UHGV virus genome: UHGV-0126763
Length of the DNA: 37,920 nucleotides
Strand: one strand, 5' to 3'
From: a virus
Shown: piece after piece, positions 1 to 37,920 of the stretch
Layout: each line of letters begins with the position of its first letter
Numbering within the stretch: the first letter of the stretch is position 1
Notes under the pieces: generated by a model
Told to the model about the DNA's origin: nothing
Seen by the model: only the letters and a program-made list of their open reading frames with translations
The model's database searches: none
Made by a program: the position numbers and the translations under genes

Positions 1-49
1 TTCGGTATCAAGTGACAGACTCCAGTAAGCAGTAGTGTTTTTATCCATA

Positions 50-493
50 TCACTCTCCTTTGATGCGAATGCCAGCGGCGCGGATTGCAGCGATGACCTC
101 AGAAACTTTGTATGCCATTACCGTTTGGTAATCATCGTGAAAATCTGTTCGATGAAGCATGCTGCTACGTTCCGGGAGCAGTATTTCCCGCTCCTCCAGT
201 TCTGCTATGCGCTTTTTTGCTGTTTCCAGCTCATCCAGCAGCGCCAAGACGGTAGCCGGATTGGCTGCGGCGATGAATTCAGCATTGGCCTGCTGTTCCA
301 TTTGGAAATCTTCATCGAAACCGCTTTCAGGATGCGCTCCTTCAATTCTGCAAATGGGAAGATATCCAACAACTTCACGATGAATTAGCGCATCACCAGC
401 ATCAAATCTCTCCTCTCCATATTCGAGCGACCACACACCACACGTTGCTTTCTCCGCCGCTTCACGCAGCGCCTGTTTGTTGATGTTGCTCAT
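50..493 (-). CDS. Phage early-left protein, possibly Ead/Ea22-like
   Basis: 147-aa ORF at distal end of the minus-strand early operon; start overlaps stop of upstream ORF (ATGA-type overlap at 490-493); family name from memory only. Confidence 0.55.
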   Translation of the reverse strand: MSNINKQALREAAEKATCGVWSLEYGEERFDAGDALIHREVVGYLPICRIEGAHPESGFDEDFQMEQQANAEFIAAANPATVLALLDELETAKKRIAELEEREILLPERSSMLHRTDFHDDYQTVMAYKVSEVIAAIRAAGIRIKGE

Positions 494-1137
494 TGGGCGG
501 CCTCCTGGCGGTCGATTCGTTCAATTTCAGCCAGAATAAGTGCGCCAGCTTTCACCATGTCACGGCGTGGATTTGTCGGCTTCCACCATTCTGGTGTCCA
601 CGGCCAGTCAAATGGAATGCGGTTAAATGGATGGATGGCATTCAGTACGTAGCATGAGGATGCCCACAGTAACTGCGATTTGCTGTACTGGTCATCATGC
701 TCAGGCGTCCATCCCTCAGCTGATTGATGGCGTTGACGCTCTGCAATTACTGACTGAACGGCATTGGATAGCGATTTCACACCCTGCGCACGCACTTCAG
801 CCAGGAACGCATCGGTGGCTGGGGTGTCTGATTGCAGAGACTTTGCGCGATAGTCATTCCACCCTCTTGCATACATGGGATTAACTTGCACTCCATCTTT
901 TACGCAATATGCCTGCCCTCCACGGTTGATAACCTTGATTTCGCCCATAGCGCCAGACTTCAGCCCCGCATTCTCCGCTGCCAGCGCCGCGCACTTGGCC
1001 TCCGCTTCAGCAAATTTACGCACCAGATATTCAGCGTTTGTTTCGTTAACCTTTAAATCATTTGGGATGCATTTACCTTTAAGAAATCCATCCATCTCAA
1101 TTAGTGACATTTGTTTCATTTCTTCCCACTCCGCCAC
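490..1137 (-). CDS. Hypothetical phage early-left protein
   Basis: 215-aa ORF, Trp/Pro-rich C-terminal region, operon-coupled with flanking minus-strand genes. Confidence 0.6.
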
Positions 1138-1280
1138 ATCGCATTCAGATATTTGTTTTGATTTACTGATGGAAAAGAATTTCTCTTAAGCAATTCCTCT
1201 CTCGATGGCATTGGCTTTACGCGTTGGCGAATAATCATTTCTGCCGGAAGAATGCCGGGATTGTATGCAAGTCCTCTCAT
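1116..1280 (-). CDS. Small hypothetical protein (54 aa), not in ORF track
   Basis: ATG at 1280 preceded by AAAGAGGAA 7 nt upstream on minus strand; stop overlaps start of 490..1137 ORF by 22 nt; hand-translated. Confidence 0.3.
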
Positions 1281-1296
1281 GGTAAATTCCTCTTTG

Positions 1297-1611
1297 TTAA
1301 TTTATTCGTATGCCTGTTCTCTCTTCATCAAGTTTTTTTAGCTTGTATCGCATAGCTCTTACTGAATAAATTGAGCGGCAGGTTGCAATTGCTATTTCTT
1401 CTGCGGAGAACTTACCGAAAAGTGATACTTCGGCTCTTGTCCAGCGTCTTCCACGAAGTCGGCTAACAATGTCAGCGCCAATCCTTGTTGCTTTCGCCAT
1501 TACTGCTTTTTCAGTCCTTTCCAGTTTTTCAGCGATAACTTCAACTGGCATTGTCGCCGCTACTTCGCGCAAGAAATCGACTTCCCATTTCTCCCATGGA
1601 GTCTTTTTCAT
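1297..1611 (-). CDS. Hypothetical phage early protein, possibly DNA-binding
   Basis: 104-aa ORF with two internal repeats of a W-x-E/DFLRE-like motif; position in early-left operon. Confidence 0.55.
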
Positions 1612-1622
1612 AGTCGATACCG

Positions 1623-2105
1623 TTATTTGATAAGAAGTGAAGGTTTCCCAACCTTGAGTTGAGCGCCTGGGATATTTATTCCTGCTTTTAGTTGGTGTTT
1701 GATTGCCAGTTTGTCGGCTTTAATTGTCGTTTCAAACTCAACGTATTCAGGAGGAAGGGCGCTTGAGTCGATGATTTCTACAGTTTCTGACGGTTTGCGG
1801 ATTGTTACCTGGTGAATACCTGCTCGAATCTTTTTCTTGCCAACCATTTCAAGCGATGACGCTATATATGATTTGATGCTGTCAATCTTATTTTGAATTA
1901 CTGCGGCTCGCTCATTTAGTGACTTTGCCTCTTCCTTGAGGCGTTCAGCATAACCAGATTCATTTTTAATAATGGCGAGAAGTTGCTCTATTTTATCGGT
2001 AAATTCTCCTTCCATGCCTTCTATTGTGTCAGCAATCATCTCTGTCTCTAAATCTGAATCCATCAATTTTGCGTATTCATTGGCTATTTCATATAGTTTG
2101 CTCAC
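1623..2105 (-). CDS. Gp157-family phage protein
   Basis: ORF-track frame 1623..2111 begins with TTG; GTG at 2105 has GGAGG 6 nt upstream; coiled-coil-like acidic N-terminus recalled as siphovirus Gp157 family; directly downstream of recT. Confidence 0.55.
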   Translation of the reverse strand: MSKLYEIANEYAKLMDSDLETEMIADTIEGMEGEFTDKIEQLLAIIKNESGYAERLKEEAKSLNERAAVIQNKIDSIKSYIASSLEMVGKKKIRAGIHQVTIRKPSETVEIIDSSALPPEYVEFETTIKADKLAIKHQLKAGINIPGAQLKVGKPSLLIK

Positions 2106-3000
2106 TGGCAACCTCCAGTTTCGCTTTGCATTCTATGTAAATGGCTTGTACGTTCTGCTGCAATTTCATTCCAGATGTCAGGCGATATGCTTCTGCAAAA
2201 TATCGCTTCAAATCATCCATCTTTTCTGCCTGAGCCATTTCATCACAAAGAAGTTGTGCTTTATCCGTTATTTCCTGCTGGCGTTTCCGTTCATCTTCGC
2301 GGATATCTTCCTCTGATTTGTACGGCATAACTGGTTCAGTCCATACACCTTCTTCTTCGTTTAGTACGTGAATAGCACTATCAAGACGTGATGCCTTAGG
2401 CCAATACTTGCTTGCACGCTTTACGACCGTCTTTCGCGCCATCTCATTCCAGTGATTTACCCATGGCCCTTTATCGCTGAATGCCGCCTTGCTTGTTTTC
2501 CTTACAGCCTCAATTTCAGCCAGACTCATCTCTTCCGTTAGATAATCACCTGCTGGCGTCTTAACTGTGCAGTAAACGCCAACGATATCACCACGATCAC
2601 CGAAGGCGTTGTATTTATGGGTTGGTGCTTTATCAAGCCCGTTTGACTCATAGGTATCGTTAGCATGAACAAGTTTTGCCTGACCCCATGAGATAACACC
2701 AGACTCCATTGCAATATGGAGCAATCCCATATAGCTGATATCAAGGCAAACCATGCCGTCGCGCGGAACCAGATAAGCCAGTTTGCTGGCCGGGTTTAAG
2801 GTGATGCCGATCGCCGCAACATTGATGATGGCGTTCTGTGCGCTGGTTGGATTTGCCAGTGCTGTTTTAGCCAGGTAATCATTTTTCTGGAAATACTGAA
2901 TTGCAAACTGGCTTTCCTTAGCCCATGTCACCGTCTGTTCAGTCAATGCTCCGCAGAATAACTGCTCCTGCTGTTTAACGAATTCAACGATATTGCTCAT
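2089..3000 (-). CDS. recT: RecT-family single-strand annealing recombinase
   Basis: 303 aa; GPWVNHWNEMARKTVVKRASKYWP segment matches the conserved RecT core as recalled from E. coli Rac RecT; ATG with GGAG RBS. Confidence 0.85.
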   Translation of the reverse strand: MSNIVEFVKQQEQLFCGALTEQTVTWAKESQFAIQYFQKNDYLAKTALANPTSAQNAIINVAAIGITLNPASKLAYLVPRDGMVCLDISYMGLLHIAMESGVISWGQAKLVHANDTYESNGLDKAPTHKYNAFGDRGDIVGVYCTVKTPAGDYLTEEMSLAEIEAVRKTSKAAFSDKGPWVNHWNEMARKTVVKRASKYWPKASRLDSAIHVLNEEEGVWTEPVMPYKSEEDIREDERKRQQEITDKAQLLCDEMAQAEKMDDLKRYFAEAYRLTSGMKLQQNVQAIYIECKAKLEVASEQTI

Positions 3001-3308
3001 GCAGCTTCTCCATAAATATGTCTGCGTTTGAATATTGCGAAGGCATATTCAGCCTTAACTCTTTCGGTTATTGCATCCCAGAACCATTCAGCGGCTTTTT
3101 CCTGATAGTCACAGTCATCATCTTCCAGCCAGTCGATAGCGTCCTTAGTGTGTTCATCTGGCTTATATGAGCGAAGCATTTCGCTTATTGGGTCGCAACG
3201 TTTGCAGAGGCGATCAACTTCACTGTTGATTCGTTCGTAATCATCATCGGTAAAACTTGCGATGATTTGCGATATTTCACGCTTATCATTCAGAGTCAGA
3301 ATCATCAT
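2997..3308 (-). CDS. Hypothetical phage early protein
   Basis: 103-aa acidic ORF, ATGATG start, stop overlaps recT start. Confidence 0.55.
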   Translation of the reverse strand: MMILTLNDKREISQIIASFTDDDYERINSEVDRLCKRCDPISEMLRSYKPDEHTKDAIDWLEDDDCDYQEKAAEWFWDAITERVKAEYAFAIFKRRHIYGEAA

Positions 3309-3393
3309 CTTTCTCCTGTTCTTTGTGCTGATTGAGCATTTCTTTCATCTGACGAATGAATTCTTCGTCTGACCAGTTATCTGTAAAACTCAT
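3286..3393 (-). CDS. Small hypothetical protein (35 aa), not in ORF track
   Basis: Hand translation MSFTDNWSDEEFIRQMKEMLNQHKEQEKDDDSDSE; stop overlaps ATGATG start of downstream gene; weak RBS. Confidence 0.3.
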   Translation of the reverse strand: MSFTDNWSDEEFIRQMKEMLNQHKEQEKDDDSDSE

Positions 3394-3624
3394 GGACGGC
3401 CTTGTTGTTTCAAAATATCCCAAAGCTTTTCGAGCAAACTTTTCATTCTTGGTTGTTTAAAGTCTGCTCCGGTTAAAATGTTTTTTCGTGAATGCTGCAC
3501 CGATAAAATCGGGTTGAAAGGGCGAACCGATGCCGCCCCTGCAATAGCGAACTGTTGCATAGGATGCTCCTTCTGTTTGATTGCATAACGAAAACGCCTC
3601 GAATGAAGCGTTATTGGTATGCAT

Positions 3625-3648
3625 ATAAAAAGGCCCTCACATTGGAGG
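3625..3648 (-). terminator. Intrinsic terminator-like hairpin in early-left operon (tL-like)
   Basis: Minus strand reads GCCCTC-caatgt-GAGGGCC followed by TTTTTATATGC. Confidence 0.45.
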
Positions 3649-3778
3649 GCAAAGAAGATTTCCAATAATCAGAACAAGTCGGCTCCTGTTTAGTTACGAG
3701 CGACATTGCTCCGTGTATTCACTCGTTGGAATGAATACACAGTGCAGTGTTTATTCTGTTGCTTATTCCAAAGCAAAT

Positions 3779-4021
3779 TTAACCATCAACAAACTCTTCT
3801 GGTAATTTATCAACCAGTTGATGACTTATTATCAGCCATTTGCCATCCTTCGTTTCGTATGCATATTTCTGGTCTTTTATCATCATGTGTTCGGCTACTG
3901 CCCTAACTGCCTGATCGGTGACATCTTCTCTCTTTCCTACCCACATTCCTTTTTCAGTGTTTAATGTTCCTTGAAAAATACGACCGCTTAATGGGCTTGC
4001 GCCCATAGTTTTTACTCTCAT
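3779..4021 (-). CDS. Hypothetical phage early protein
   Basis: 80-aa ORF immediately downstream of N; ATG with GAGAG RBS. Confidence 0.6.
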   Translation of the reverse strand: MRVKTMGASPLSGRIFQGTLNTEKGMWVGKREDVTDQAVRAVAEHMMIKDQKYAYETKDGKWLIISHQLVDKLPEEFVDG

Positions 4022-4031
4022 GTATCAGCTC

Positions 4032-4358
4032 TCAAATAAGTGGTTTGCTGCCTAATTTCATTTTCTGGCGACCAACACAAGTCACACCCATTTCACTGCG
4101 TGGCTTGCTGTACCATGTGCGCTGATTCTTGCGTTCAATACGTTGCAGGTTGCTTTCAATCTGTTCGTGGTATTCAGCCAGCACCGTAAGGTCTATCGGA
4201 TTCAGTGCGCTTTCTACTCGTGATTTCGGTTTGCGATTCAGCGAGAGAATAGGGCGGTTAACTGGTTTTGCGCTTACCCCAACCAACAGGGGATTTGCTG
4301 CTTTCCATTGAGCCTGTTTCTCTGCGCGACGTTCGCGGCGGCGTGTTTGTGCATCCAT
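4032..4358 (-). CDS. N: Antitermination protein N
   Basis: N-terminal arginine-rich motif MDAQTRRRERRAEKQAQWKAANPLL matches lambda N as recalled; AGGAG RBS; nutL lies immediately upstream. Confidence 0.9.
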   Translation of the reverse strand: MDAQTRRRERRAEKQAQWKAANPLLVGVSAKPVNRPILSLNRKPKSRVESALNPIDLTVLAEYHEQIESNLQRIERKNQRTWYSKPRSEMGVTCVGRQKMKLGSKPLI

Positions 4359-4556
4359 CTGGATTCTCCTGTCAGTTAGCTTTGGTGATTGGATGGCCGG
4401 CGCTGAACCCCGGCTTACTGGTTAGAGCGCCCGCACTACCAGTGACGCTGTCTTGAGGCGCAGATTGGTTACTGCTTGCCATGAGCGCTGTTTATACATT
4501 GGTCGAGCATCAGCCTGCTCATTCATCCAATCCCAAAGCCTTCTGCTTTGAATGCT

Positions 4557-4587
4557 GCCCTTCTTCAGGGCTTAATTTTTAAGAGCG
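4557..4587 (-). promoter_or_regulatory. nutL: nutL (boxA CGCTCTTA plus boxB GCCCTGAAGAAGGGC hairpin)
   Basis: Minus strand reads CGCTCTTAAAAATTAAGCCCTGAAGAAGGGC between the OL operators and N. Confidence 0.85.
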
Positions 4588-4631
4588 TCACCTTCATGGT
4601 GGTTAGTGCGTCCTGCTGATGGCTTAAAATA

Positions 4632-4712
4632 TACCTACAGGTAAAACCGTTGTCTATACCTGCAGGTAAATAAAATTGGTGTGAGAGTTTACCTGTTTGA
4701 ATTTTCAGGTAA
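4632..4712. promoter_or_regulatory. OL operator cluster (PL region)
   Basis: TACCTACAGGTA at 4632-4643, perfect palindrome TACCTGCAGGTA at 4657-4668, split half-sites TACCTG-N10-CAGGTA at 4690-4711; same motif family as the OR sites. Confidence 0.6.
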
Positions 4713-4730
4713 TTAATTTTTTGGATTGAT

Positions 4731-4754
4731 ATAAAAAAGCCCGCTTTGCGGGCT
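4731..4754 (-). terminator. Intrinsic terminator after the repressor operon
   Basis: Minus strand AGCCCGC-aaa-GCGGGCT stem-loop followed by TTTTTTAT, directly after the stop of the 4766..5062 gene. Confidence 0.7.
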
Positions 4755-4765
4755 GAAAGGAGATG

Positions 4766-5062
4766 TCAGAAGCTATTTGGATTGCTTGGCCATTGCGGCA
4801 ATTTTGATTCTACCGGGGTGTGTTTGGGTTTGAGTCCGTTTAAGTAGTCAAGACGCTCAATGGCGCATTTATACATAGCAATCTGATCTGATGACATGTC
4901 GTCATATGACATGCCTTTGAACTTCTTAATTATCGTTTCTGCCTCATGTATAAGATTCTTCTTCCTCATGAGTTCAGCTGTATGCTTAGAGCTTACAGGA
5001 GATAACTTTGCCCATATGAAGCAGATGATTACAACAGCGACTACTATGCCGGGTATAAACAT
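4766..5062 (-). CDS. Small membrane protein co-transcribed with repressor (rex-position moron)
   Basis: ORF-track frame 4766..5080 begins with TTG overlapping the cI stop; in-frame ATG at 5062 with GAGGA upstream gives MFIPGIVVAVVIICFIWAKL, a single N-terminal TM helix plus about 75-aa soluble domain. Confidence 0.6.
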   Translation of the reverse strand: MFIPGIVVAVVIICFIWAKLSPVSSKHTAELMRKKNLIHEAETIIKKFKGMSYDDMSSDQIAMYKCAIERLDYLNGLKPKHTPVESKLPQWPSNPNSF

Positions 5063-5076
5063 TTGCTGCTTTATCC

Positions 5077-5763
5077 TCAAACTTTTGGCAGATCGTCCTG
5101 GTCTACGTACCTGGTGTGTTTCACAATAGCTGAAACAAAATGCATTTTATCAACTTCTTCAACAGGAAGAGTGATTGGGCGGTGATCACTGTTTATGCTA
5201 CTAAACTGATAATCACCGTCTCTTGTTTTGTTCATGATCTTTATCATGTTGTGACCGTCTTTGGTCCTTACAAAGACTTCATCACCTGGATGTACTGGCG
5301 TATTTGGTTCAATAACAACATATTCTCCTGACTGAATCCTTGGCCACATGCTGTCACCCTTAACCTTCAGACCGTAAGCATCTTTATCGCCGCTGTAGAT
5401 GCTTAACCAACCGGATCTGAATTCAATCATATCCACTGAGCCATCAACTCCCAAAACGGCTTCACCAATTACCGGAACAAAACCCGCACGAACGTTACCC
5501 GCAAACTCAAGATGGTCCGTAGCTCCAGCTTTACCATCTGCAAGCATGTCCATCCATCCGCGTGGGAGATTAAAAGATTTTTCAATTAGTTCCATCATAT
5601 CGTCAGCAATGCGTTTTTTTCCGCTTTTTCCTTCCGGATACAGCATTCTGGAAACGTATGATGGTTCCCTTTCTATTCGACGAGCCAACTCTGAGGCCTT
5701 TCCATTACAGAATCGGTCTCTTATCTCTATCAGCCTTAGTCGTCTTTGTTCGTATTTATCCAT
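5077..5763 (-). CDS. cI: CI-like prophage repressor (HTH N-terminal domain, S24 LexA-like peptidase C-terminal domain)
   Basis: 228 aa; C-terminal GDSMWP serine motif and later Lys typical of S24 autoproteases; divergent from cro-like gene across the operator cluster; no SD before ATG, consistent with a leaderless PRM-type transcript. Confidence 0.85.
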   Translation of the reverse strand: MDKYEQRRLRLIEIRDRFCNGKASELARRIEREPSYVSRMLYPEGKSGKKRIADDMMELIEKSFNLPRGWMDMLADGKAGATDHLEFAGNVRAGFVPVIGEAVLGVDGSVDMIEFRSGWLSIYSGDKDAYGLKVKGDSMWPRIQSGEYVVIEPNTPVHPGDEVFVRTKDGHNMIKIMNKTRDGDYQFSSINSDHRPITLPVEEVDKMHFVSAIVKHTRYVDQDDLPKV

Positions 5764-5769
5764 GATTTA

Positions 5770-5797
5770 ATTCTATCTTTGATTACCTGCCGGTAAA
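5770..5797 (-). promoter_or_regulatory. Candidate PRM-like promoter for the repressor
   Basis: Minus strand TAGAAT -10 about 6 nt upstream of the cI ATG, weak TTTACC -35 overlapping the leftmost OR site; inferred by analogy to lambda PRM. Confidence 0.35.
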
Positions 5798-5835
5798 TAA
5801 CCTATGGGTATTGATTTGCTTTTTACCTACAGGTA
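5784..5835. promoter_or_regulatory. OR operator cluster (three sites)
   Basis: TACCTGCCGGTA 5784-5795, weaker AACCTATGGGTA 5799-5810, TACCTACAGGTA 5824-5835; tripartite arrangement between divergent cI and cro. Confidence 0.65.
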
Positions 5836-5839
5836 AACT
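5811..5839 (+). promoter_or_regulatory. Candidate PR promoter
   Basis: TTGATT -35 at 5811-5816, 17-nt spacer, TAAACT -10 at 5834-5839 overlapping the rightmost operator; 32 nt upstream of cro start. Confidence 0.45.
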
Positions 5840-5871
5840 CATCTTATTCAACAACGGGAAGGAGATAGCAA

Positions 5872-6102
5872 ATGGAAGAACTCCGCTTGTATCTGAACTC
5901 CCTTTCACTGGAAGAGCAGAGAGAATTTGCCACCAAGTGCGGAACTTCTATCGGCTATTTGAGGAAAGCACTTAGCCGTAATCATGAATTGGGCGCAGCA
6001 CTTTGTGTTCTGATTGAGAAGTTCAGCAATGGTGAAGTGACTCGCAAAGACCTTCATCCGGTTGATTGGGAAAGCATCTGGCCTGAATTAATGGCCGCTT
6101 AA
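5872..6102 (+). CDS. cro: Cro-like HTH regulator
   Basis: 76 aa, first gene rightward of OR, GGAG RBS 7 nt upstream. Confidence 0.65.
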   Translation: MEELRLYLNSLSLEEQREFATKCGTSIGYLRKALSRNHELGAALCVLIEKFSNGEVTRKDLHPVDWESIWPELMAA

Positions 6103-6110
6103 GTTATTAA

Positions 6111-6142
6111 CGCTCTTACACATCCCAGCCCTGAAAAAGGGC
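6111..6142 (+). promoter_or_regulatory. nutR: nutR (boxA CGCTCTTA plus boxB GCCCTGAAAAAGGGC)
   Basis: CGCTCTTA at 6111-6118 and hairpin GCCCTGAAAAAGGGC at 6128-6142, between cro and cII. Confidence 0.8.
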
Positions 6143-6218
6143 ATTACCAGAAACAAATCTCTATGGTTTTGCGTTTCTTTGCGAAGCCAACTCTATCTAA
6201 TCATTAAGGAAATTATCT

Positions 6219-6500
6219 ATGGGTACTATTGCAACTAAAAGCAAGAAAGCGGCTCGCATCGAGTCAGCCTTGCTGAACAAACTGGCACTGATGGGGCAGA
6301 AGACATTCGCTCGAGCAATGGGGGTTCCTGAATATCAGGTAAGCCGATGGAAGAATGGTTTCTTCTCGCAGGTAAGCATGATGCTGGCTGTTCTGGAATA
6401 CGGAATCGAAGACGATGAAATGGCTGAGCTGACTAAGCGGCTTGCCAATTACCTGACAAAAGAAAAAGCCCCGAAGAACGGCGAATTCTTCGAGGCCTGA
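6219..6500 (+). CDS. cII: CII-like transcriptional activator
   Basis: 93 aa; ARIESALLNK...SRWK...MLAVLE segment resembles lambda CII as recalled; AGGA RBS. Confidence 0.8.
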   Translation: MGTIATKSKKAARIESALLNKLALMGQKTFARAMGVPEYQVSRWKNGFFSQVSMMLAVLEYGIEDDEMAELTKRLANYLTKEKAPKNGEFFEA

Positions 6501-6534
6501 TGTAGAAAGACTGGATCAATCCACAGGAGTCATT

Positions 6535-6696
6535 ATGACAAAACGTCGTAAGAAATACCAGGAAAAAGAAGAGATTCGACACCCTGATTCACCTGAGGGA
6601 TTAGTGGTAGCCGCAGCAAATAACAGGGCGTTCGCAGAGCGCCTTGTTGGTGTTTACAGACTAGCCAAAGCAGGAGTGAAACATGGGCGTCGTTAA
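6535..6696 (+). CDS. Small basic hypothetical protein (53 aa), not in ORF track
   Basis: ATG at 6535 preceded by AGGAGT; hand translation [53 protein letters not shown]; stop overlaps the O-like gene start. Confidence 0.35.
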   Translation: MTKRRKKYQEKEEIRHPDSPEGLVVAAANNRAFAERLVGVYRLAKAGVKHGRR

Positions 6697-7504
6697 GTTA
6701 GCTGATTACAGGCCTCAACTGGAGGTCGTGGAGCATCGCGTGGCAGATACCGAAGATGGTTTCATGCGCGTTGCTAACGAGATTACCGACAGTCTGCTGA
6801 TGGCTGATTTAACCGTCCGGCAGTTGAAGGTGATGCTCGCTATCATGCGCAAGACATACGGATTCAATAAGCCGATGGATCGACTCACAAACACGCAGAT
6901 AGCAGCCATGACAGGTATTCATCACACTCATGTTTGCGCTGCCAAGCGCCAGCTTATTGAGCGTAAATTCCTCATTGCTGATGGCGTGAAAATCGGAGTG
7001 AACAAGGTGGTTTCGCAGTGGATTAGCCAGGACAGCTTAACATTAGCTAAAACAGCTAATAAAACATTAGCCAAGTCAGCTAATGGGTATAAGCCAAGTC
7101 AGCTAAACACAAAAGACAATATACAAAAGACAATAAATACAAATACCCCCTTACCCCCTAACGGGGGCGGCGATGGGCAGGTTAAACCTGAACGTCGCAA
7201 GGCAGAACGAATCGACTACGAATCCTTCCTGAACGCCTACAACACCGAAGTCGGTGACAGACTTCCACATGCTGTTGCGGTCAACGAGAAACGCAAACGT
7301 CGCCTGAAGAAAATCATTCCGCAACTGAAAACGCCAAACGTGGACGGTTTCAGAGCGTATGTCAGGGCGTTTGTGCATCAGGCCAAGCCGTTTTACTTCG
7401 GAGACAACGACACGGGCTGGACGGCAGATTTTGATTACCTGCTGAGGGAAGACTCGTTAACGGGAGTTCGGGAAGGGAAGTTTGCAGACAGGGGGATTGC
7501 ATGA
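6683..7504 (+). CDS. Replication initiator, O-like (P22 gene 18-like)
   Basis: 273 aa, AGGAG RBS, origin-like iterons embedded mid-gene, followed by helicase gene with ATGA overlap. Confidence 0.8.
7040..7140. repeat. Candidate replication origin: iterons plus AT-rich tract inside the O-like gene
   Basis: GCCAAGTCAGCTAA occurs twice (7070-7083, 7092-7105) with related TTAGCTAAAA/CAGCTAAT units, then A-rich tract with AAAAGACAATA twice. Confidence 0.5.
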
Positions 7505-8877
7505 GACAGGATATCGAAGCGAGCGTTATCGGTGGCCTGCTGATTGGTGGATTAACACCAACCGCCAGCGACGTTCTGGCAACGCTTGAGCCGGAAGCGT
7601 TTTCAATTCCGCTCTACCGGAAAGCCTTCGAGGTTATCCGCAAGCAGGCGCGAAACAGAAACCTAATCGACGCGCTGATGGTTGCCGAGGAGTGCGGAGA
7701 GGAGCATTTCACGTCAATCCTGATGACCAGCAAAAACTGCCCGAGTGCCGCAAACCTGAAGGGATATGCCGGAATGGTCGCGGATAACTATCACCGCCGT
7801 CTGGTGCTGGAAATCATGGATGAAATGCGTGAACCAATTCAGAGCGGAACCATCGACGCATCGAGTCAGGCGATGGATGAACTTGTAAAACGTCTCTCAG
7901 CTATCAGAAAGCCCCGTGACGAGGTTAAACCTGTACGGTTAGGGGAAATCATCACTGACTACACTGACACGCTTGACAGGCGTCTGAGGAACGGAGAAGA
8001 GTCAGATACCCTGAAGACCGGAATCGAAGAACTTGACGCCATCACCGGAGGGATGAACGCAGAAGACCTGGTGATTATCGCCGCTCGTCCTGGTATGGGG
8101 AAAACCGAGCTGGCGCTGAAGATTGCCGAAGGCGTTGCAAGCCGCGCTATTCCTGGTTCTGACGTCCGGCGCGGAGTGTTGATTTTCTCGATGGAAATGA
8201 GCGCATTGCAGATTGCAGAGCGAAGCATTGCCAACGCCGGGAGGATGTCGGTTAGCGTGCTGCGAAATCCTGCATCGATGGATGACGAAGGCTGGGCGCG
8301 TGTTGCTAACGGCATGAGTCAGCTTGCAGATTTGGATGTATGGGTAGTCGATGCCTCGCGGTTATCGGTCGAAGAAATACGCTCAATCGCAGAACGGCAC
8401 AAACAGGAAAATCCAAACCTGTCACTCATCATGGCGGATTATCTTGGCCTGATTGAGAAGCCGAAAGCAGACCGCAACGACCTCGCAATTGCTCACATCT
8501 CCGGAAGCCTGAAGGCGATGGCGAAAGACCTGAAAACGCCTGTTATCTCCCTGAGTCAGCTTTCGCGCGATGTTGAGAAGCGACCAAACAAACGCCCGAC
8601 AAACGCAGATTTGCGTGATTCAGGAAGCATTGAACAGGACGCAGACTCAATCATCATGCTCTATCGGGAAGCGGTATATGATGAGAACAGTAGCGCCGCG
8701 CCATTTGCTGAAATCATCGTGACGAAAAACCGTTTTGGCTCGCTTGGTACAGTTTACCAGCGGTTCTGTAACGGACACTTTGTTGCATGTGACCAGGATG
8801 AAGCCAGACAGATTTGCACAACATCAAATGCACCTGCTGCGCGTGGCAGACGATATGCACAAGGGGCTGACGTATGA
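7501..8877 (+). CDS. Replicative DNA helicase, DnaB family (P22 gene 12-like)
   Basis: 458 aa; Walker A GMGKTE; DnaB-like N-terminal [14 protein letters not shown]. Confidence 0.9.
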
Positions 8878-8902
8878 CCATCTACATCACTGAGCTAATA
8901 AC

Positions 8903-8934
8903 AGGCCTGCTGGTAATCGCAGGCCTTTTTATTT
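8903..8934 (+). terminator. Intrinsic terminator after replication genes (tR2-like position)
   Basis: AGGCCTGC-tggtaatc-GCAGGCCT stem-loop followed by TTTTTATTT. Confidence 0.6.
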
Positions 8935-8950
8935 GGGGGAGAGGGAAGTC

Positions 8951-9391
8951 ATGAAAAAACTAACCTTTGAAATTCGATCTCCAGCACATCAGCAAAACGC
9001 TATCCACGCAGTACAGCAAATCCTTCCAGACCCAACCAAACCAATCGTAGTAACCATTCAGGAACGCAACCGCAGCTTAGACCAAAACAGGAAGCTATGG
9101 GCCTGCTTAGGTGACGTCTCTCGTCAGGTTGAATGGCATGGTCGCTGGCTGGATGCAGAAAGCTGGAAGTGTGTGTTTACCGCAGCATTAAAGCAGCAGG
9201 ACGTTGTTCCTAACCTTGCCGGGAATGGTTTTGTGGTAATAGGCCAGTCAACCAGCAGGATGCGTGTAAGCGAATTTGCGGAGTTATTAGAGCTTATACA
9301 GGCATTCGGTACAGAGCGTGGCGTTAAGTGGTCAGACGAAGCGCGACTGGCTCTGGAGTGGAAAGCGCGATGGGGAGACCGGGCAGCATGA
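8951..9391 (+). CDS. ninB: NinB recombination protein
   Basis: Start chosen at [10 protein letters not shown] (ATG 8951, GGGAGAGGGAAG RBS) giving 146 aa, matching lambda NinB length and sequence as recalled; ORF-track start 8933 is upstream in frame. Confidence 0.8.
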
Positions 9392-9561
9392 TGCGATGTT
9401 ATCGGTGCGGTGAATGCAAAGAAGATAACCGCTTCCGACCAAATCAACCTTACTGGAATCGATGGTGTCTCCGGTGTGAAAGAACACCAACAGGGGTGTT
9501 ACCACTACCGCAGGAAAAGGAGGACGTGTGGCGAGACAGCGACGAAGTATCACCGACATAA
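9388..9561 (+). CDS. ninD: Small Cys-rich nin-region protein, NinD-like (57 aa)
   Basis: ATGATG start overlapping the ninB stop; [11 protein letters not shown]...WCLRCE zinc-ribbon-like cysteines; length matches lambda NinD. Confidence 0.55.
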
Positions 9562-9704
9562 TCTGTGAAAACTGCAAATACCTTCCAACGAAACGCTCCA
9601 GAAATAAACGCAAGCCAATCCCAAAAGAATCTGACGTAAAAACCTTCAATTACACGGCTCACCTGTGGGATATCCGGTGGCTAAGACATCGTGCGAGGAA
9701 ATGA
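9528..9704 (+). CDS. ninE: NinE-like small protein (58 aa), not in ORF track
   Basis: GTG start 4 nt after AAGGAGG; hand translation [57 protein letters not shown]; overlaps neighbours in other frames. Confidence 0.5.
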
Positions 9705-10081
9705 CAATGGATTATTCACAGTTAAGTGATTTTGAAATTAACTTAAAAGTCGCGCATATCGTGCTAGGAAAAAACAATTACGACTGGGATCCAGAAAAGA
9801 AAGAAGTTTACTTGGCTGGAATTGATGGTGGTGAGTTTTTGCCTTGCGGATATTTTGACCCATGTAATATGGCCGCTGACGCATATCCGATCATCACTGA
9901 AAACAAAATTAGCACCATGTGGATGACAGCGGAAAAAGAATGGTGCGCATGGTCAGGAGGTGATTTAGAGGAAGGTTGTTGGGAATGGGAAAATATTCCT
10001 GGCTACTACTTCTGCGGCGAATCGCCTCTCCGCGCCGCCATGATTGTCTTTCTCATGATGCAGGACGCCAATAATGCTTAG
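9701..10081 (+). CDS. Hypothetical nin-region protein (NinX-like?)
   Basis: Start at MTMDYSQ (ATG 9701, GAGGAA RBS, ATGA overlap with NinE-like stop); ORF-track start 9665 is in frame upstream. Confidence 0.55.
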
Positions 10082-10250
10082 CCCATCCCAATCCCTTCAA
10101 TACCAGAAAGAAAGCGTCGAGCGGGCTTTAACGTGCGCTAACTGCGGCCAGAAGCTGCATGTGCTGGAAGTTCACGTGTGTGAGCACTGCTGCGCAGAAC
10201 TGATGAGCGATCCGAATAGCTCAATGTACGAGGAAGAAGACGATGAGTGA
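10074..10250 (+). CDS. ninF: NinF-like small Cys-rich protein (58 aa), not in ORF track
   Basis: Hand translation [58 protein letters not shown]; stop overlaps next gene start. Confidence 0.5.
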   Translation: MLSPSQSLQYQKESVERALTCANCGQKLHVLEVHVCEHCCAELMSDPNSSMYEEEDDE

Positions 10251-10512
10251 TTTCTCTGAGCTTATTTCCTTCAAAAAAGACAGAGAAGAAATGCGGACTG
10301 AATCTGTCTATTACGTTCAACACCGGAATAAACGCTCTGTGCTTGATCAGGAGCTGGTTATTACCGGAGACCTGGCATTCAGAACATATAAGGCCAGCAT
10401 GGAAATGAAGGATTTCCCTAAATGTGGTTCTGAAAGAGAAGCCGCGTTAAAGCTGGCTGAGTGGATGCAGAGAATGGCTGCTGCAATTGAGAATTACTGG
10501 AGTGAACCATAA
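10243..10512 (+). CDS. Hypothetical nin-region protein
   Basis: 89-aa ORF, translationally coupled on both sides. Confidence 0.55.
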   Translation: MSDFSELISFKKDREEMRTESVYYVQHRNKRSVLDQELVITGDLAFRTYKASMEMKDFPKCGSEREAALKLAEWMQRMAAAIENYWSEP

Positions 10513-10802
10513 TGGCTAACCTACGCAAAGAAGCACGCGGCAGAGAATGCCAGGTACGTATTTACGGCGTATGCAATGGCAACCCTGAAACTACAGTTCT
10601 GGCACATTACCGGATGGCTGGAATTTGCGGAACGGGAATGAAGCCTGACGACCTGATCGGTGCATGGGCTTGTAGTGCGTGTCACGATGAAATCGACCGA
10701 CGCACCCATAATCTCGACAACAAAGACGCCAGACTTTACCACCTCGAAGGCGTGATCAGAACGCAGGCGATACTGCTGAGGGAGGGGAAGATTAAGTCAT
10801 GA
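10512..10802 (+). CDS. DUF1364-like protein (YbcO-like, putative nuclease)
   Basis: 96 aa; RGRECQVRI...CNGNPETTVLAHYR...CSACHDEIDRR cysteine/histidine pattern recalled from DLP12 YbcO. Confidence 0.6.
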   Translation: MANLRKEARGRECQVRIYGVCNGNPETTVLAHYRMAGICGTGMKPDDLIGAWACSACHDEIDRRTHNLDNKDARLYHLEGVIRTQAILLREGKIKS

Positions 10803-11161
10803 ACGAATATCAGTTTGTGCTTCCATACCCGCCATCGGTGAATACCTACTGGCGAAGACGGGGAAGCCAATACTACATCAGCGATAAAGGCCAGAAATAC
10901 CGAAAAGACGTTCAGCAAATCATCCGCCAACTCAAGTTAGATATTTTCACCAAATCACGACTCCGCATCAAAGTCATCGCAGACGTTCCAGACTCCCGCC
11001 GCCGCGACCTCGACAACATCCTGAAAGGTTTACTCGACTCCCTTATCCACGCCGGATTTGCGGAAGACGACGAGCAATTCGATGACATTCGCGTAATTCG
11101 TGGCGTGAAAGTACCAGGCGGAAGGCTTGGAATAAAAATCACCGAACTGGAGAACGCATGA
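10799..11161 (+). CDS. rusA: Holliday junction resolvase RusA
   Basis: 120 aa; DSRRRDLDNILKGLLDSL and GGRLGIKITE motifs match RusA catalytic region as recalled. Confidence 0.85.
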   Translation: MNEYQFVLPYPPSVNTYWRRRGSQYYISDKGQKYRKDVQQIIRQLKLDIFTKSRLRIKVIADVPDSRRRDLDNILKGLLDSLIHAGFAEDDEQFDDIRVIRGVKVPGGRLGIKITELENA

Positions 11162-11346
11162 ACGCCACAATTCAAACGATACCAGAGCTTCTTATCCAGA
11201 CACGAGGCAATCAGACCGAAGTGGCGAGGATGCTTTCCTGCGCAAGAGGAACAGTGCTCAAGTACAACCGAGACAGCAAAGGCGAGCGTCACGTAATAGT
11301 TAACGGCGTCCTGATGGTCAAACAGGGCAAGAGGGGTAGACCATGA
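11158..11346 (+). CDS. ninH: NinH-like small DNA-binding protein
   Basis: 62-aa ORF immediately upstream of Q, coupled to rusA stop. Confidence 0.5.
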   Translation: MNATIQTIPELLIQTRGNQTEVARMLSCARGTVLKYNRDSKGERHVIVNGVLMVKQGKRGRP

Positions 11347-11966
11347 GACTCGAAAGTGTAGCTAAATTTCATTCGCCAAAAAGCCCGATGATGAGCGACT
11401 CACCACGGGCTACGGCTTCTGACTCTCTTTCCGGTACTGATGTGATGGCTGCTATGGGGATGGCGCAATCACAAGCCGGATTCGGAATGGCTGCATTCTG
11501 CGGTAAGCATGAACTCAGCCAGAACGACAAACAAAAGGCTATCAACTATCTGATGCAATTTGCACACAAGGTATCGGGGAAATACCGTGGTGTGGCAAAG
11601 CTCGAAGGAAATACTAAGGCAAAGGTACTGCAAGTGCTCGCAACATTCGCTTATGCGGATTATTGCCGTAGTGCCGCGACGCCGGGCGCAAGATGCAGAG
11701 ATTGTCACGGTACAGGCCGTGCGGTTGATATAGCAAAAACAGAGCAGTGGGGGAGAGTTGTTGAGAAAGAATGCGGAAGATGCAAAGGTGTCGGCTATTC
11801 AAGAATGCCAGCAAGCGCCGCATATCGCGCTGTGACGATGCTAATCCCAAACCTTACCCAACCCACCTGGTCACGCACTGTTAAGCCGCTGTATGACGCT
11901 CTGGTGGTGCAATGCCACAAAGAAGAGTCAATCGCAGACAACATTTTGAATGCGGTCACACGTTAG
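11343..11966 (+). CDS. Q: Late gene antiterminator Q (lambda-type)
   Basis: 207 aa; MRLESVAKFHSPKSPMMSDSPRATASD and CRDCHGTGRAVD zinc motif match lambda Q as recalled; followed by PR'-like promoter. Confidence 0.9.
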   Translation: MRLESVAKFHSPKSPMMSDSPRATASDSLSGTDVMAAMGMAQSQAGFGMAAFCGKHELSQNDKQKAINYLMQFAHKVSGKYRGVAKLEGNTKAKVLQVLATFAYADYCRSAATPGARCRDCHGTGRAVDIAKTEQWGRVVEKECGRCKGVGYSRMPASAAYRAVTMLIPNLTQPTWSRTVKPLYDALVVQCHKEESIADNILNAVTR

Positions 11967-12008
11967 CAGCATGATTGCCACGGATGGCAACATATTAACG
12001 GCATGATA

Positions 12009-12050
12009 TTGACTTTTTGAATAAAGTTGGGTAAATTTGACTCAACGATG
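12009..12050 (+). promoter_or_regulatory. PR' late promoter with qut region
   Basis: TTGACT -35 at 12009-12014, 17-nt spacer, TAAATT -10 at 12032-12037, then TTGACTCAACGATGG as in lambda PR'/qut as recalled. Confidence 0.6.
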
Positions 12051-12072
12051 GATAAATGCACTCGTTAAATAA

Positions 12073-12108
12073 AGCCCTGAGTTAATAGCTCGGGGCTTTT
12101 TGCGTTTT
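12073..12108 (+). terminator. Intrinsic terminator downstream of PR' (tR'-like, non-lambda sequence)
   Basis: AGCCCTGAG-ttaatag-CTCGGGGCT stem (one G-U) followed by TTTTTGCGTTTT. Confidence 0.55.
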
Positions 12109-12399
12109 AAGCACGGCCTTTCTGAAAGCACATCAAACCAAATACCAGACAGACAAAAATAATCACCTTATCCGCTGTGGCTACGGTGCGGTGTGCTTTG
12201 CATAAAAGAAAACCAGCGCAATGGCTGGCTTCGTGAAAGCGGGTGGCAAGAAGTTGCGCTAACAACCTCATGCCGTTTTGCCCGTGCATATCGGTCACGA
12301 ACAAATCTGATTACTAAACACAGTAGCCTGGATTTGTTCTATCAGTAATCGACCTTATTCCTAATTAAATAGAGCAAATCCCCTTATTGGGGGTAAGAC

Positions 12400-12723
12400 A
12401 TGAAGATGCCAGAAAAACATGACCTGTTAGCCGCCATTCTCGCGGCAAAGGAACAAGGCATCGGGGCAATCCTTGCGTTTGCAATGGCGTACCTTCGCGG
12501 CAGATATAATGGCGGTGCGTTTACAAAAACAGTAATCGACGCAACGATGTGCGCCATTATCGCCTGGTTCATTCGTGACCTTCTCGACTTCGCCGGACTA
12601 AGTAGCAATCTCGCTTATATAACGAGCGTGTTCATCGGCTACATCGGTACTGACTCGATTGGTTCGCTTATCAAACGCTTCGCTGCTAAAAAAGCCGGAG
12701 TAGAAGATGGTGGAAATCAATAA
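12400..12723 (+). CDS. S: Holin S (class I, dual-start MKM)
   Basis: 107 aa; [22 protein letters not shown] matches lambda S as recalled; upstream leader also lambda-like. Confidence 0.9.
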
Positions 12724-13183
12724 TCAACGTAAGGCGTTCCTCGATATGCTGGCGTGGTCAGAGGGAACTGATAACGGACGGCAGAAAACCAGAAATCATG
12801 GTTATGACGTCATTGTAGGAGGAGAGCTATTCACTGATTACTCCGATCACCCTCGCAAACTTGTCACGCTAAACCCCAAACTCAAATCAACAGCAGCCGG
12901 ACGTTACCAGCTTCTTTCCCGTTGGTGGGATGCCTATCGTAAGCAGCTTGGCCTGAAAGACTTCTCTCCGAAAAGCCAGGACGCTGTTGCGCTGCAGCAG
13001 ATTAAGGAGCGTGGCGCTTTACCGATGATTGATCGCGGTGATATCCGTCAGGCTATCGACCGTTGCAGCAATATCTGGGCTTCACTGCCGGGTGCTGGTT
13101 ATGGTCAGTTCGAGCATAAGGCAGACAGCCTGATTGCAAAATTCAAAGAAGCAGGCGGAACGGTCAGAGAGATTGAGGTATGA
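12707..13183 (+). CDS. R: Endolysin R (lambda-type lytic transglycosylase)
   Basis: 158 aa; [26 protein letters not shown] matches lambda R as recalled; overlaps S stop. Confidence 0.9.
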
Positions 13184-13617
13184 GTAGAGTAACCGCGATT
13201 ATCTCCGCTCTGGTTATCTGCATCATCGTCTGCCTGTCATGGGCTGTTAATCATTACCGTGATAATGCAATCGCCTACAAAGAGCAGCGCGATAAAGCCA
13301 CATCCATCATCGCTGATATGCAGAAGCGGCAACATGATGTAGCAGAACTCGACGCCAGATACACAAAGGAGCTTGCTGATGCTAACGCGACTATCGAAAG
13401 TCTCCGTGCTGATGTTTCTGCTGGTCGTAAGCGCCTGCAAGTCGCCGCCACCTGTACAAAGTCAACGACCGGAGCCAGCAGCATGGGCGATGGAGAAAGC
13501 CCAAGACTTACAGCAGATGCTGAACTCAATTATTACCGTCTCCGAAGTGGAATCGACAAGATAACCGCGCAGGTTAACTATCTGCAGGAATACATCAGGA
13601 CGCAATGCCTGAAATGA
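13180..13617 (+). CDS. Rz: Spanin inner-membrane subunit Rz
   Basis: 145 aa; N-terminal [25 protein letters not shown] as in lambda Rz; central and C-terminal parts diverge. Confidence 0.8.
13373..13564 (+). CDS. Rz1: Spanin outer-membrane lipoprotein Rz1 (embedded in Rz, +1 frame)
   Basis: Signal peptide with lipobox-like VVSAC then proline-rich [13 protein letters not shown]; wholly inside Rz in another frame. Confidence 0.65.
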
Positions 13618-13653
13618 TCGGGCGATGAAAACCAAAAAAAACAGGAGCAATAC

Positions 13654-13929
13654 ATGACTAAGCTTTATCACCGCATCTCAACTTTTCTCTCTGGTTGCTG
13701 GGCGTTTATCACGTCTATTTCGTTCGCCATCTTTAGTTTCGGTAGCACAGCGTGCTCGCTTAGTCGGGGTCTGTGGCGTGCTATTTCAGCACTAGCGCCG
13801 AAATTTTTACCTGAAAAGGCTGTTTGGCGAATTGTAGAGCGAATGTGTAGTGAGAGCGTTCGCGAGAAGATTAACGTATTTGGACGTCATCCTCGAAATA
13901 CAGGCGCATTGTGCAGTCCGTTACTGTAG
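13654..13929 (+). CDS. Questionable hypothetical ORF after lysis genes
   Basis: 91-aa ORF with AGGAG RBS, but Cys/Ser/Trp-rich composition looks weakly protein-like; may be non-coding. Confidence 0.25.
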   Translation: MTKLYHRISTFLSGCWAFITSISFAIFSFGSTACSLSRGLWRAISALAPKFLPEKAVWRIVERMCSESVREKINVFGRHPRNTGALCSPLL

Positions 13930-14291
13930 TCATTACAAAGCCCATCTACGGGTGGGCTTGATAATGAAACCGGAATTTATTCTGGGCAACCAGTTACGGC
14001 AGTGCCGCGAAACAACCCAAGCCAGAAAGTGGGGAAATAACACTGGCAGCCACTGAAAGATGAACCTCCAGCCTTATGGCAAAAAAGATTCTTTGTGGTG
14101 GCGGACTGATGGAAAGACATCGGTTATTGCAGAGACCATTCAATGAGTGGTCTCGACAATGGCTTATACCCTACACGGGATAACTTAACTGATATCCCCA
14201 CAAGCGGATAAAGAGGTCCCTCAATGTCAGGAATCTACTTTTAGTCCTAGTAATGATGAACTAGATATCAGTTGAGTCGCTTGGGTGGTGA

Positions 14292-37834: not shown

Positions 37835-37920
37835 GGGTAAAAATCCGGTGGGTAAAATTATTTTATCCACTTTTTACCCGTCATGGAGTGCGGCTGTCAA
37901 CGATCTGACGCGAACCATGA

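Follow-up and report, generated by a model that had tools for sequence, protein, structure and literature searches.

Between its late antiterminator gene Q and its holin gene S, the prophage studied here carries an interval of 433 bp (positions 11967-12399 of the window, by which we mean the whole 37,920-nucleotide stretch of virus genome UHGV-0126763). The interval raises the question of what kind of late leader follows a promoter that looks like lambda PR', and how long an RNA that leader would yield when Q does not act. An earlier note, made from the letters alone, had proposed that PR' and the first transcribed bases resemble those of lambda, that the similarity then breaks off and returns near 12230, and that a strong intrinsic terminator lies about 30-60 nt past the start, against about 194 nt in lambda. 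From the comparisons set out below, we consider it very probable that the late genes of a mosaic lambdoid prophage are controlled from this interval, and that it combines lambda-type (type 1) Q antitermination with a P22-type leader. Beyond a correct annotation, the significance of this arrangement is small, as it amounts to the standard lambda/P22 Q switch with a P22-type terminator.

The Q gene, PR' and the initial transcribed region

The Q gene lies on the + strand at 11343-11966. Its 207-residue product is identical to lambda Q at 206 of 207 amino acids and to P22 gp23 at 202 of 207, and it matches Pfam PF03589 (Antiterm) with E = 1.3e-57. On the other side of the interval, also on the + strand, stands the first late gene, holin S (12400-12723), which opens with the dual start ATG AAG ATG; the protein shares 106 of 107 amino acids with lambda S and matches PF05106 (E = 2.4e-30). 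The gap between these two genes is the interval under study. The Q proteins of lambda and P22 are both of type 1 and are interchangeable (PMC8022706), and phage epsilon34 also carries a lambda-type Q and qut (PMC2629481).

The Q gene may have a second transcript of its own. In P22, gene 23 carries an annotated C1-activated antisense promoter and terminator (a23; P22 locus 219-484, corresponding approximately to window 11378-11643). Since, at the DNA level, Q and P22 gene 23 agree to about 96% in the global-alignment profile, a P22-like antisense a23 unit is probably present inside Q of this phage as well. The terminator scan also returned a terminator-like site on the - strand inside Q, at 11406..11388.

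Within 11000-13500, the promoter scan found a single sigma-70-like site on the + strand, consisting of TTGACT (-35, 12009-12014) and TAAATT (-10, 12032-12037) with 17 bp between them. Alignment with lambda 44443-45239 shows that both hexamers and their spacing are those of lambda PR', and we assign the late promoter PR' to 12009-12037. Two of the 17 spacer positions, 12016 and 12026, differ from lambda in the segment that holds the Q-binding element. The same PR' sequence is found in P22, HK544, HK022, HK97 and Emek, and a promoter or qut is annotated at the equivalent site in the records of HK544, HK140 and P22.

Position 12044 aligns with lambda 44587, at which the late RNA of lambda begins, and transcription would thus start there (+1, + strand). 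The first six transcribed bases form the -10-like element AACGAT (12044-12049), which is unchanged in lambda and P22. Nineteen of the first 23 nt match lambda, and the four that differ (+9, +11, +15 and +17) are all common to P22. The resemblance of the -35 and -10 elements and of the first transcribed bases to lambda, as first noticed, is therefore sound. We take AACGAT to induce a sigma-70-dependent pause, expected near +16/+17 (12059/12060) as in lambda; because +9, +11, +15 and +17 are not the lambda bases, the exact position of the pause could be different here. Four elements of a lambda-type (type 1) Q control region are found in the sequence of this locus, namely a Q homologue, a PR' with its Q-binding element, AACGAT, and an intrinsic terminator before S.

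Loss of lambda homology and the P22-type terminator

The boundaries of lambda homology were taken from BLAST (word size 7, E<=1). Window 11343-12066 corresponds to lambda 43886-44609 at 97.0% identity and window 12229-12723 to lambda 45015-45509 at 98.6%, with no alignment at all returned between the two blocks at these settings. Similarity to lambda is therefore lost between +23 and +24 and is regained at 12229. The left mosaic junction falls at 12066/12067, where the alignment ends at lambda 44609, and the right one at 12228/12229. The non-homologous module that they enclose, from +24 to just before CTTCGTGAAAGC, measures 162 bp in the window and 405 bp in lambda (44610-45014). In the global-alignment identity profile, cheap gap extension makes the values for window against lambda within 12067-12228 artefactual, and these were set aside; those for window against P22 were used in clearly homologous segments.

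The earlier description of this region is borne out by these boundaries. Lambda similarity is lost right past qut and the initial transcribed region, lambda-like sequence is back near 12230, and junctions of the kind expected from recombination lie inside the late regulatory region. The alignment with lambda is not collinear, since the 162 bp are unrelated to the 405 bp that stand in their place. On this sequence evidence, the mosaic junction with lambda is real and is typical of lambdoid phages.

Lambda has the same Q (206/207), promoter hexamers and AACGAT as the window, and its S leader is alike from lambda 45015 on, but its Q-S interval is 243 bp longer and contains orf-64 and the body of 6S RNA, both lacking in the window. 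The 6S RNA of lambda is a transcript of about 194 nt that ends at tR'; in the window, homology to it stops at +23. With an interval that is so much shorter (162 against 405 bp) and flanks that are 97-99% identical to lambda, one could suppose that the short leader is simply the lambda leader minus about 240 bp and otherwise collinear. We regard such an origin as practically untenable, and a deletion derivative of the lambda leader was rejected, because the 162 bp show zero BLAST similarity to lambda's 405 bp at word size 7 and E<=1. The same 162 bp are homologous end to end with P22 (76%) and with the HK and mEp phages (94-99%), and the sequence of the terminator within them is unlike lambda tR'.

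That terminator, on the + strand at 12071-12101, is of the P22 't late / tR'' type, as judged from the terminator scan, its predicted fold and the annotation of P22 and Emek. According to the scan, its stem spans 12071-12099 (+28 to +56) with 13 pairs, six of them G-C, and a loop of 3, and is followed by TTGCGTTTTA. In the core of the stem, GCCCTGAG (12074-12081) pairs with CTCGGGGC (12089-12096). The U run occupies 12097-12101, so that its last U is +58, and a second T run is located at 12105-12108. With just five U before GCG and then UUUU, the efficiency of termination could be less than 100%. When the 65-nt leader was folded, a small 5' hairpin and the terminator hairpin were predicted at -23.3 kcal/mol, against -12.2 +/- 2.4 kcal/mol for shuffled sequences (z = -4.62), and 0 of 200 shuffles were as stable. 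The hairpin of the terminator is kept in 8 phages, in which it reaches -15 to -22 kcal/mol when each is folded singly.

In P22 (BK000583), the homologous elements are annotated as follows: 'P late or P R'' at 37852-37880, qut at 37871-37900, an RNA 5' nt at 37887, and, at 37917-37945, a terminator described as 't late or t R'; antiterminated by gene 23 protein action to allow full late transcription'. The label of the RNA 5' nt reads 'similar to phage lambda P late RNA 5' nt', so the P22 annotation was made at least partly by similarity. The P22 terminator is placed 30-58 nt past the start and that of the window at +28 to +58, the same spacing, and in Salmonella phage Emek, too, the hairpin has been annotated, as a rho-independent terminator. 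Window and P22 agree at 40 of 40 positions in 12023-12062 and at 38 of 40 in 12063-12102, where the differences fall inside the terminator loop; the stem and the U run are the same. In a six-way alignment, the window follows P22 from the end of Q to about 12118, apart from the terminator loop (about 2-3 positions), and the two diverge beyond. The match of segment 12060-12235 to P22 takes in 100% of the segment, with 76.4% identity and E = 2e-24.

The window thus has both hallmarks of a P22-type late leader, a homologous and equally spaced terminator and a homologous spacer. By sequence comparison, its leader is the P22-type late leader that has already been annotated, is already known and is widespread among lambdoid phages. 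P22 is like the window in the -35, the -10, the Q-binding region, AACGAT, the initial transcribed region, the terminator stem and the U run. It differs in the spacer beyond about 12118, which is just about 76% identical; in having its own S leader and holin, where the window has the lambda version (98.6%) from 12229; and in its host, which is Salmonella for P22 and E. coli for the phage in the window. HK022, HK97, HK544, HK140 and the mEp series agree with the window at 95-99% identity throughout the 433 bp, with PR', terminator, spacer and lambda-type S leader all alike and only point differences, such as a G to T change in the 3' arm of the terminator in HK022 and an extra A before +1 in HK97. 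The morphogenesis genes of these HK and mEp phages, however, are unlike those of the prophage in the window.

The position of the hairpin also allows for a different assignment. It lies 105 nt past the stop codon of Q and is the first + strand intrinsic terminator after that gene, and its main task could be to end the early rightward operon by stopping read-through past Q, rather than to act as a Q-controlled late terminator. We find this improbable, given that the hairpin is just 27 nt from the conserved PR' start and qut, at the very position of the annotated P22 late terminator, and that it also occurs behind the unrelated Q genes of ES18 and ST104 and in the late leader of phage Meifeng. 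The two roles are, moreover, compatible with each other.

The predicted short leader RNA

The length of the leader in lambda, computed from 44587 to the U run of tR', is 194-195 nt, which agrees with the figure of about 194 nt given in the earlier note. In the window, the terminated RNA made independently of Q is predicted to be about 58 nt long. The much shorter terminated late RNA that had been anticipated is thus upheld as a prediction, drawn from the sequence and from homology to P22, as is the presence of a strong terminator some 30-60 nt past the start. Folded, the predicted leader RNA would have a stem-loop in its 5' part, which a single-stranded linker rich in A and U (UAAAUAAA) would join to the terminator hairpin and its U tail. 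Short RNAs whose synthesis from late promoters is regulated by antitermination are mentioned for phages 21, phi80, 82 and P22 in a passage of PMC7547250 that cites Roberts et al. (1976).

We infer the start site, the pause, the point of termination and the dependence on Q from what is established for lambda and from homology, and on that footing the switch could operate as follows. PR' (12009-12037) would be constitutive, with RNA polymerase initiating at 12044. Sigma-70 would then re-bind AACGAT (+1 to +6) and, because of this, the polymerase would pause near +16/+17. Without Q, the polymerase would resume and stop at the hairpin and U run of 12071-12101, and a transcript of about 58 nt would be set free. 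Once accumulated, Q would bind between the -35 and -10 hexamers and load onto the paused polymerase. The Q-modified polymerase would resist the terminator at 12071-12101 as well as later ones, so that S, R, Rz and the morphogenesis genes could be transcribed.

A further possibility is that the predicted transcript of about 58 nt from PR' is more than a by-product of antitermination and acts in trans as a regulatory small RNA, made constitutively in lysogens in the manner of StxS. The predicted shape of the RNA, with its 5' stem-loop, linker, terminator hairpin and U tail, would fit such a role. The leader also hardly varies between E. coli phages and P22 of Salmonella, although the DNA just downstream is only about 76% identical. 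Terminated PR' RNAs can indeed be Hfq-dependent small RNAs, as exemplified by StxS (PMC7547250), and lambda 6S RNA has been recovered on Hfq, with a few targets (bioRxiv 10.1101/2024.10.31.621285). We nevertheless hold this to be unlikely. The leader matches no Rfam family, the best hit scoring 21 bits where the gathering score is 55, and its conservation is equally well explained by the constraints of qut, pause and terminator together with the movement of Q and PR' as a unit. In addition, natural variants disturb the structure: the 5' hairpin is broken in Emek (C to G at +20), the terminator stem is weakened in HK022, and so is the U tail in PS34.

StxS and the predicted leader RNA are alike in position and origin, each being a short RNA that ends, or would end, just past a constitutive, Q-antiterminated late promoter. 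StxS itself, 74 nt long, is cut by RNase E from a primary transcript of 258 nt, and its Hfq binding and its targets have been demonstrated (PMC7547250). It has no sequence similarity to the leader of the window and is associated with a different type of Q. The broader proposal is slightly more doubtful still: that the P22-type leader RNA would be made constitutively in all lysogens of the HK022/HK97/P22 group, would be a functional trans-acting small RNA, and would owe its near invariance partly to that function. If this were true, a short leader RNA with a lysogen function of its own would constitute a widespread prophage small RNA. We prefer to regard the RNA of about 58 nt as the predicted by-product of the Q switch.

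Mosaic surroundings of the late leader

The terminator occurs in more than one genetic setting. ES18 and ST104 have unrelated, longer Q-like proteins (from genes of 765 bp and 774 bp, respectively) and other promoter regions upstream, and yet they share with the window the outer stem GCCCTG/CGGGGC, the tail TTTTTGCGTTTTAAGCACG and the downstream spacer (ES18 locus 1187-1260; ST104 locus ~1190-1260). Their inner stem reads CA/TG instead of AG/CT, which amounts to two compensatory pair changes, and their hairpins fold at -19.7 to -20.7 kcal/mol. In the MAFFT alignment of the terminators, the inner stems of ES18 and ST104 were set in loop columns, and each variant was therefore folded separately. 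HK633 has the Q, PR' and terminator of the window, followed past the U run by about 700 bp of other DNA and then by the conserved hairpin described below and CTTCGTGA. Within this insert (HK633 locus 1243-1935), stretches resembling the post-tR' segment of lambda, such as CAGGTAAGAGCATT, can be seen by eye.

An identical hairpin, AAGCCCTGAGTTAATAGCTCGGGGCTTTTT, is present in two distant phages, Hafnia phage Meifeng (locus 1501-1536) and Pantoea phage AH01 (locus 1501-1530). In Meifeng, it stands in the late leader, directly before tRNA-Arg, tRNA-Thr and the holin gene, and the 208-aa protein encoded upstream is unrelated to the Q of the window; in AH01, it lies 3' of the endolysin gene. Breaks in homology were thus located at +23/+24 in the comparison with lambda, in the 5' arm of the terminator with ES18 and ST104, just past the U run with HK633, and at about 12118 with P22. 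Mosaic junctions cluster around the terminator, in keeping with the usual mosaicism of lambdoid phages. The late leader is a recurrent mosaic joint, at which the terminator has been paired upstream with two or more unrelated Q/promoter modules, and downstream with several inserts.

How common each version of the leader is was assessed by sequence matches. The full-length 433-bp interval is 95-99% identical in HK544, HK140, HK106, mEp234, ECP1, Gally, HK542, mEpX1 and others, with further full-length matches in the same range to Sf101, HK022, mEp213, mEp043 and HK97. Emek matches it at 98.6% identity over 97% of the interval. Coverage of at least 80% of the query was reached in 68 phage records and, among 5426 complete E. 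coli genomes, in 265. The central segment of P22/HK type was found at that coverage in 89 phage records, and the 405-bp segment of lambda in only 24, largely lambda itself and its close kin; the lambda version is thus the less common of the two in phage records. In complete E. coli genomes, the lambda segment was found in 217, and the best matches listed were mostly laboratory strains. The 194-nt 6S leader of lambda is therefore unfit as a norm for phages with a lambda-type Q, the short leader being the commoner one in phage records.

Past the terminator, the variable spacer of the late leader (12102-12212, + strand) has no similarity to lambda by BLAST, whereas segment 12060-12235 is 94-99% identical in the HK and mEp phages. 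A permissive Rfam search of 11800-12600 returned chance-level matches only (<=21 bits, against gathering scores of 39-90), and zero matches were obtained at the gathering threshold across the whole window. The tRNA scan found none in the window and none in lambda 43800-45600; the leader therefore lacks the tRNA genes that are present in some late leaders. Two open reading frames were considered and set aside. One, a 51-aa + strand frame annotated in HK140 (equivalent to window 12193-12348, GTG start), is crossed in P22 by single-base indels, so its frame is not conserved and it was not taken as a gene. The other, a 65-aa frame on the - strand (12107-12304, TTG start), was without support.

Immediately after AAAAGAAAA (12204-12212), the terminator scan and the comparison of phages revealed a conserved hairpin, CCAGC-GCAATG-GCTGG, at 12213-12228. 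Segment 12195-12240 (46 nt), which contains it, folds at -13.5 kcal/mol. The hairpin ends exactly where lambda homology returns, and lambda itself is without it. It is also found in P22, ES18, ST104 and HK633; in P22, ST104 and HK633 the arms read CCCAG...CTGGG, where one C more in the 5' arm is matched by one G more in the 3' arm, so that the stem is longer. Read on the - strand, the hairpin resembles a terminator (12232..12209, with the tail TTTTCTTTT). We know of no leftward transcript that a - strand hairpin at 12204-12232 would stop.

The lambda-type S leader (12229-12399, + strand) is 98.6% identical to lambda from 45015 on. It contains a hairpin at 12245-12274, followed by GTTTTG, and a stem-loop at 12378-12394 just upstream of the dual start of S. 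The lambda counterpart of window 12245-12279 (lambda 45031-45065) is a perfect 10-bp hairpin, GGCAGGAGGT/ACCTCCTGCC, which is followed by GTTTTG and is terminator-like; tandem late terminators have been described in lambda. The window has three substitutions relative to lambda here, which leave two mismatches in the stem, and a 67-nt segment with this hairpin folds at -20.9 kcal/mol in the window against -29.9 kcal/mol in lambda, with HK544, HK022 and HK97 intermediate.

Two observations concern DNA outside the interval. First, many rV5-like E. coli myoviruses have a segment with 82-85% identity to lambda 44866-44952, a part of lambda's own Q-S spacer that the window lacks. Some of the myovirus records annotate the segment as tRNA-Lys or tRNA-OTHER. 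ARAGORN detected no tRNA in the lambda segment, and lambda 44866-44952 may be a tRNA remnant. Second, the prophage is mosaic on a larger scale. Over about 1-14200, which comprises the early region, nin, Q and the lysis genes, its identity to the lambdoid phages Gally, vB_EcoP-611R6, Kapi1 and HK140 is about 97%, and the structural genes rightward from about 12.7-13.3 kb match another set of phages, namely Citrobacter phage Omnitron (93%) and the vB_EcoM-689R2 group (91%).
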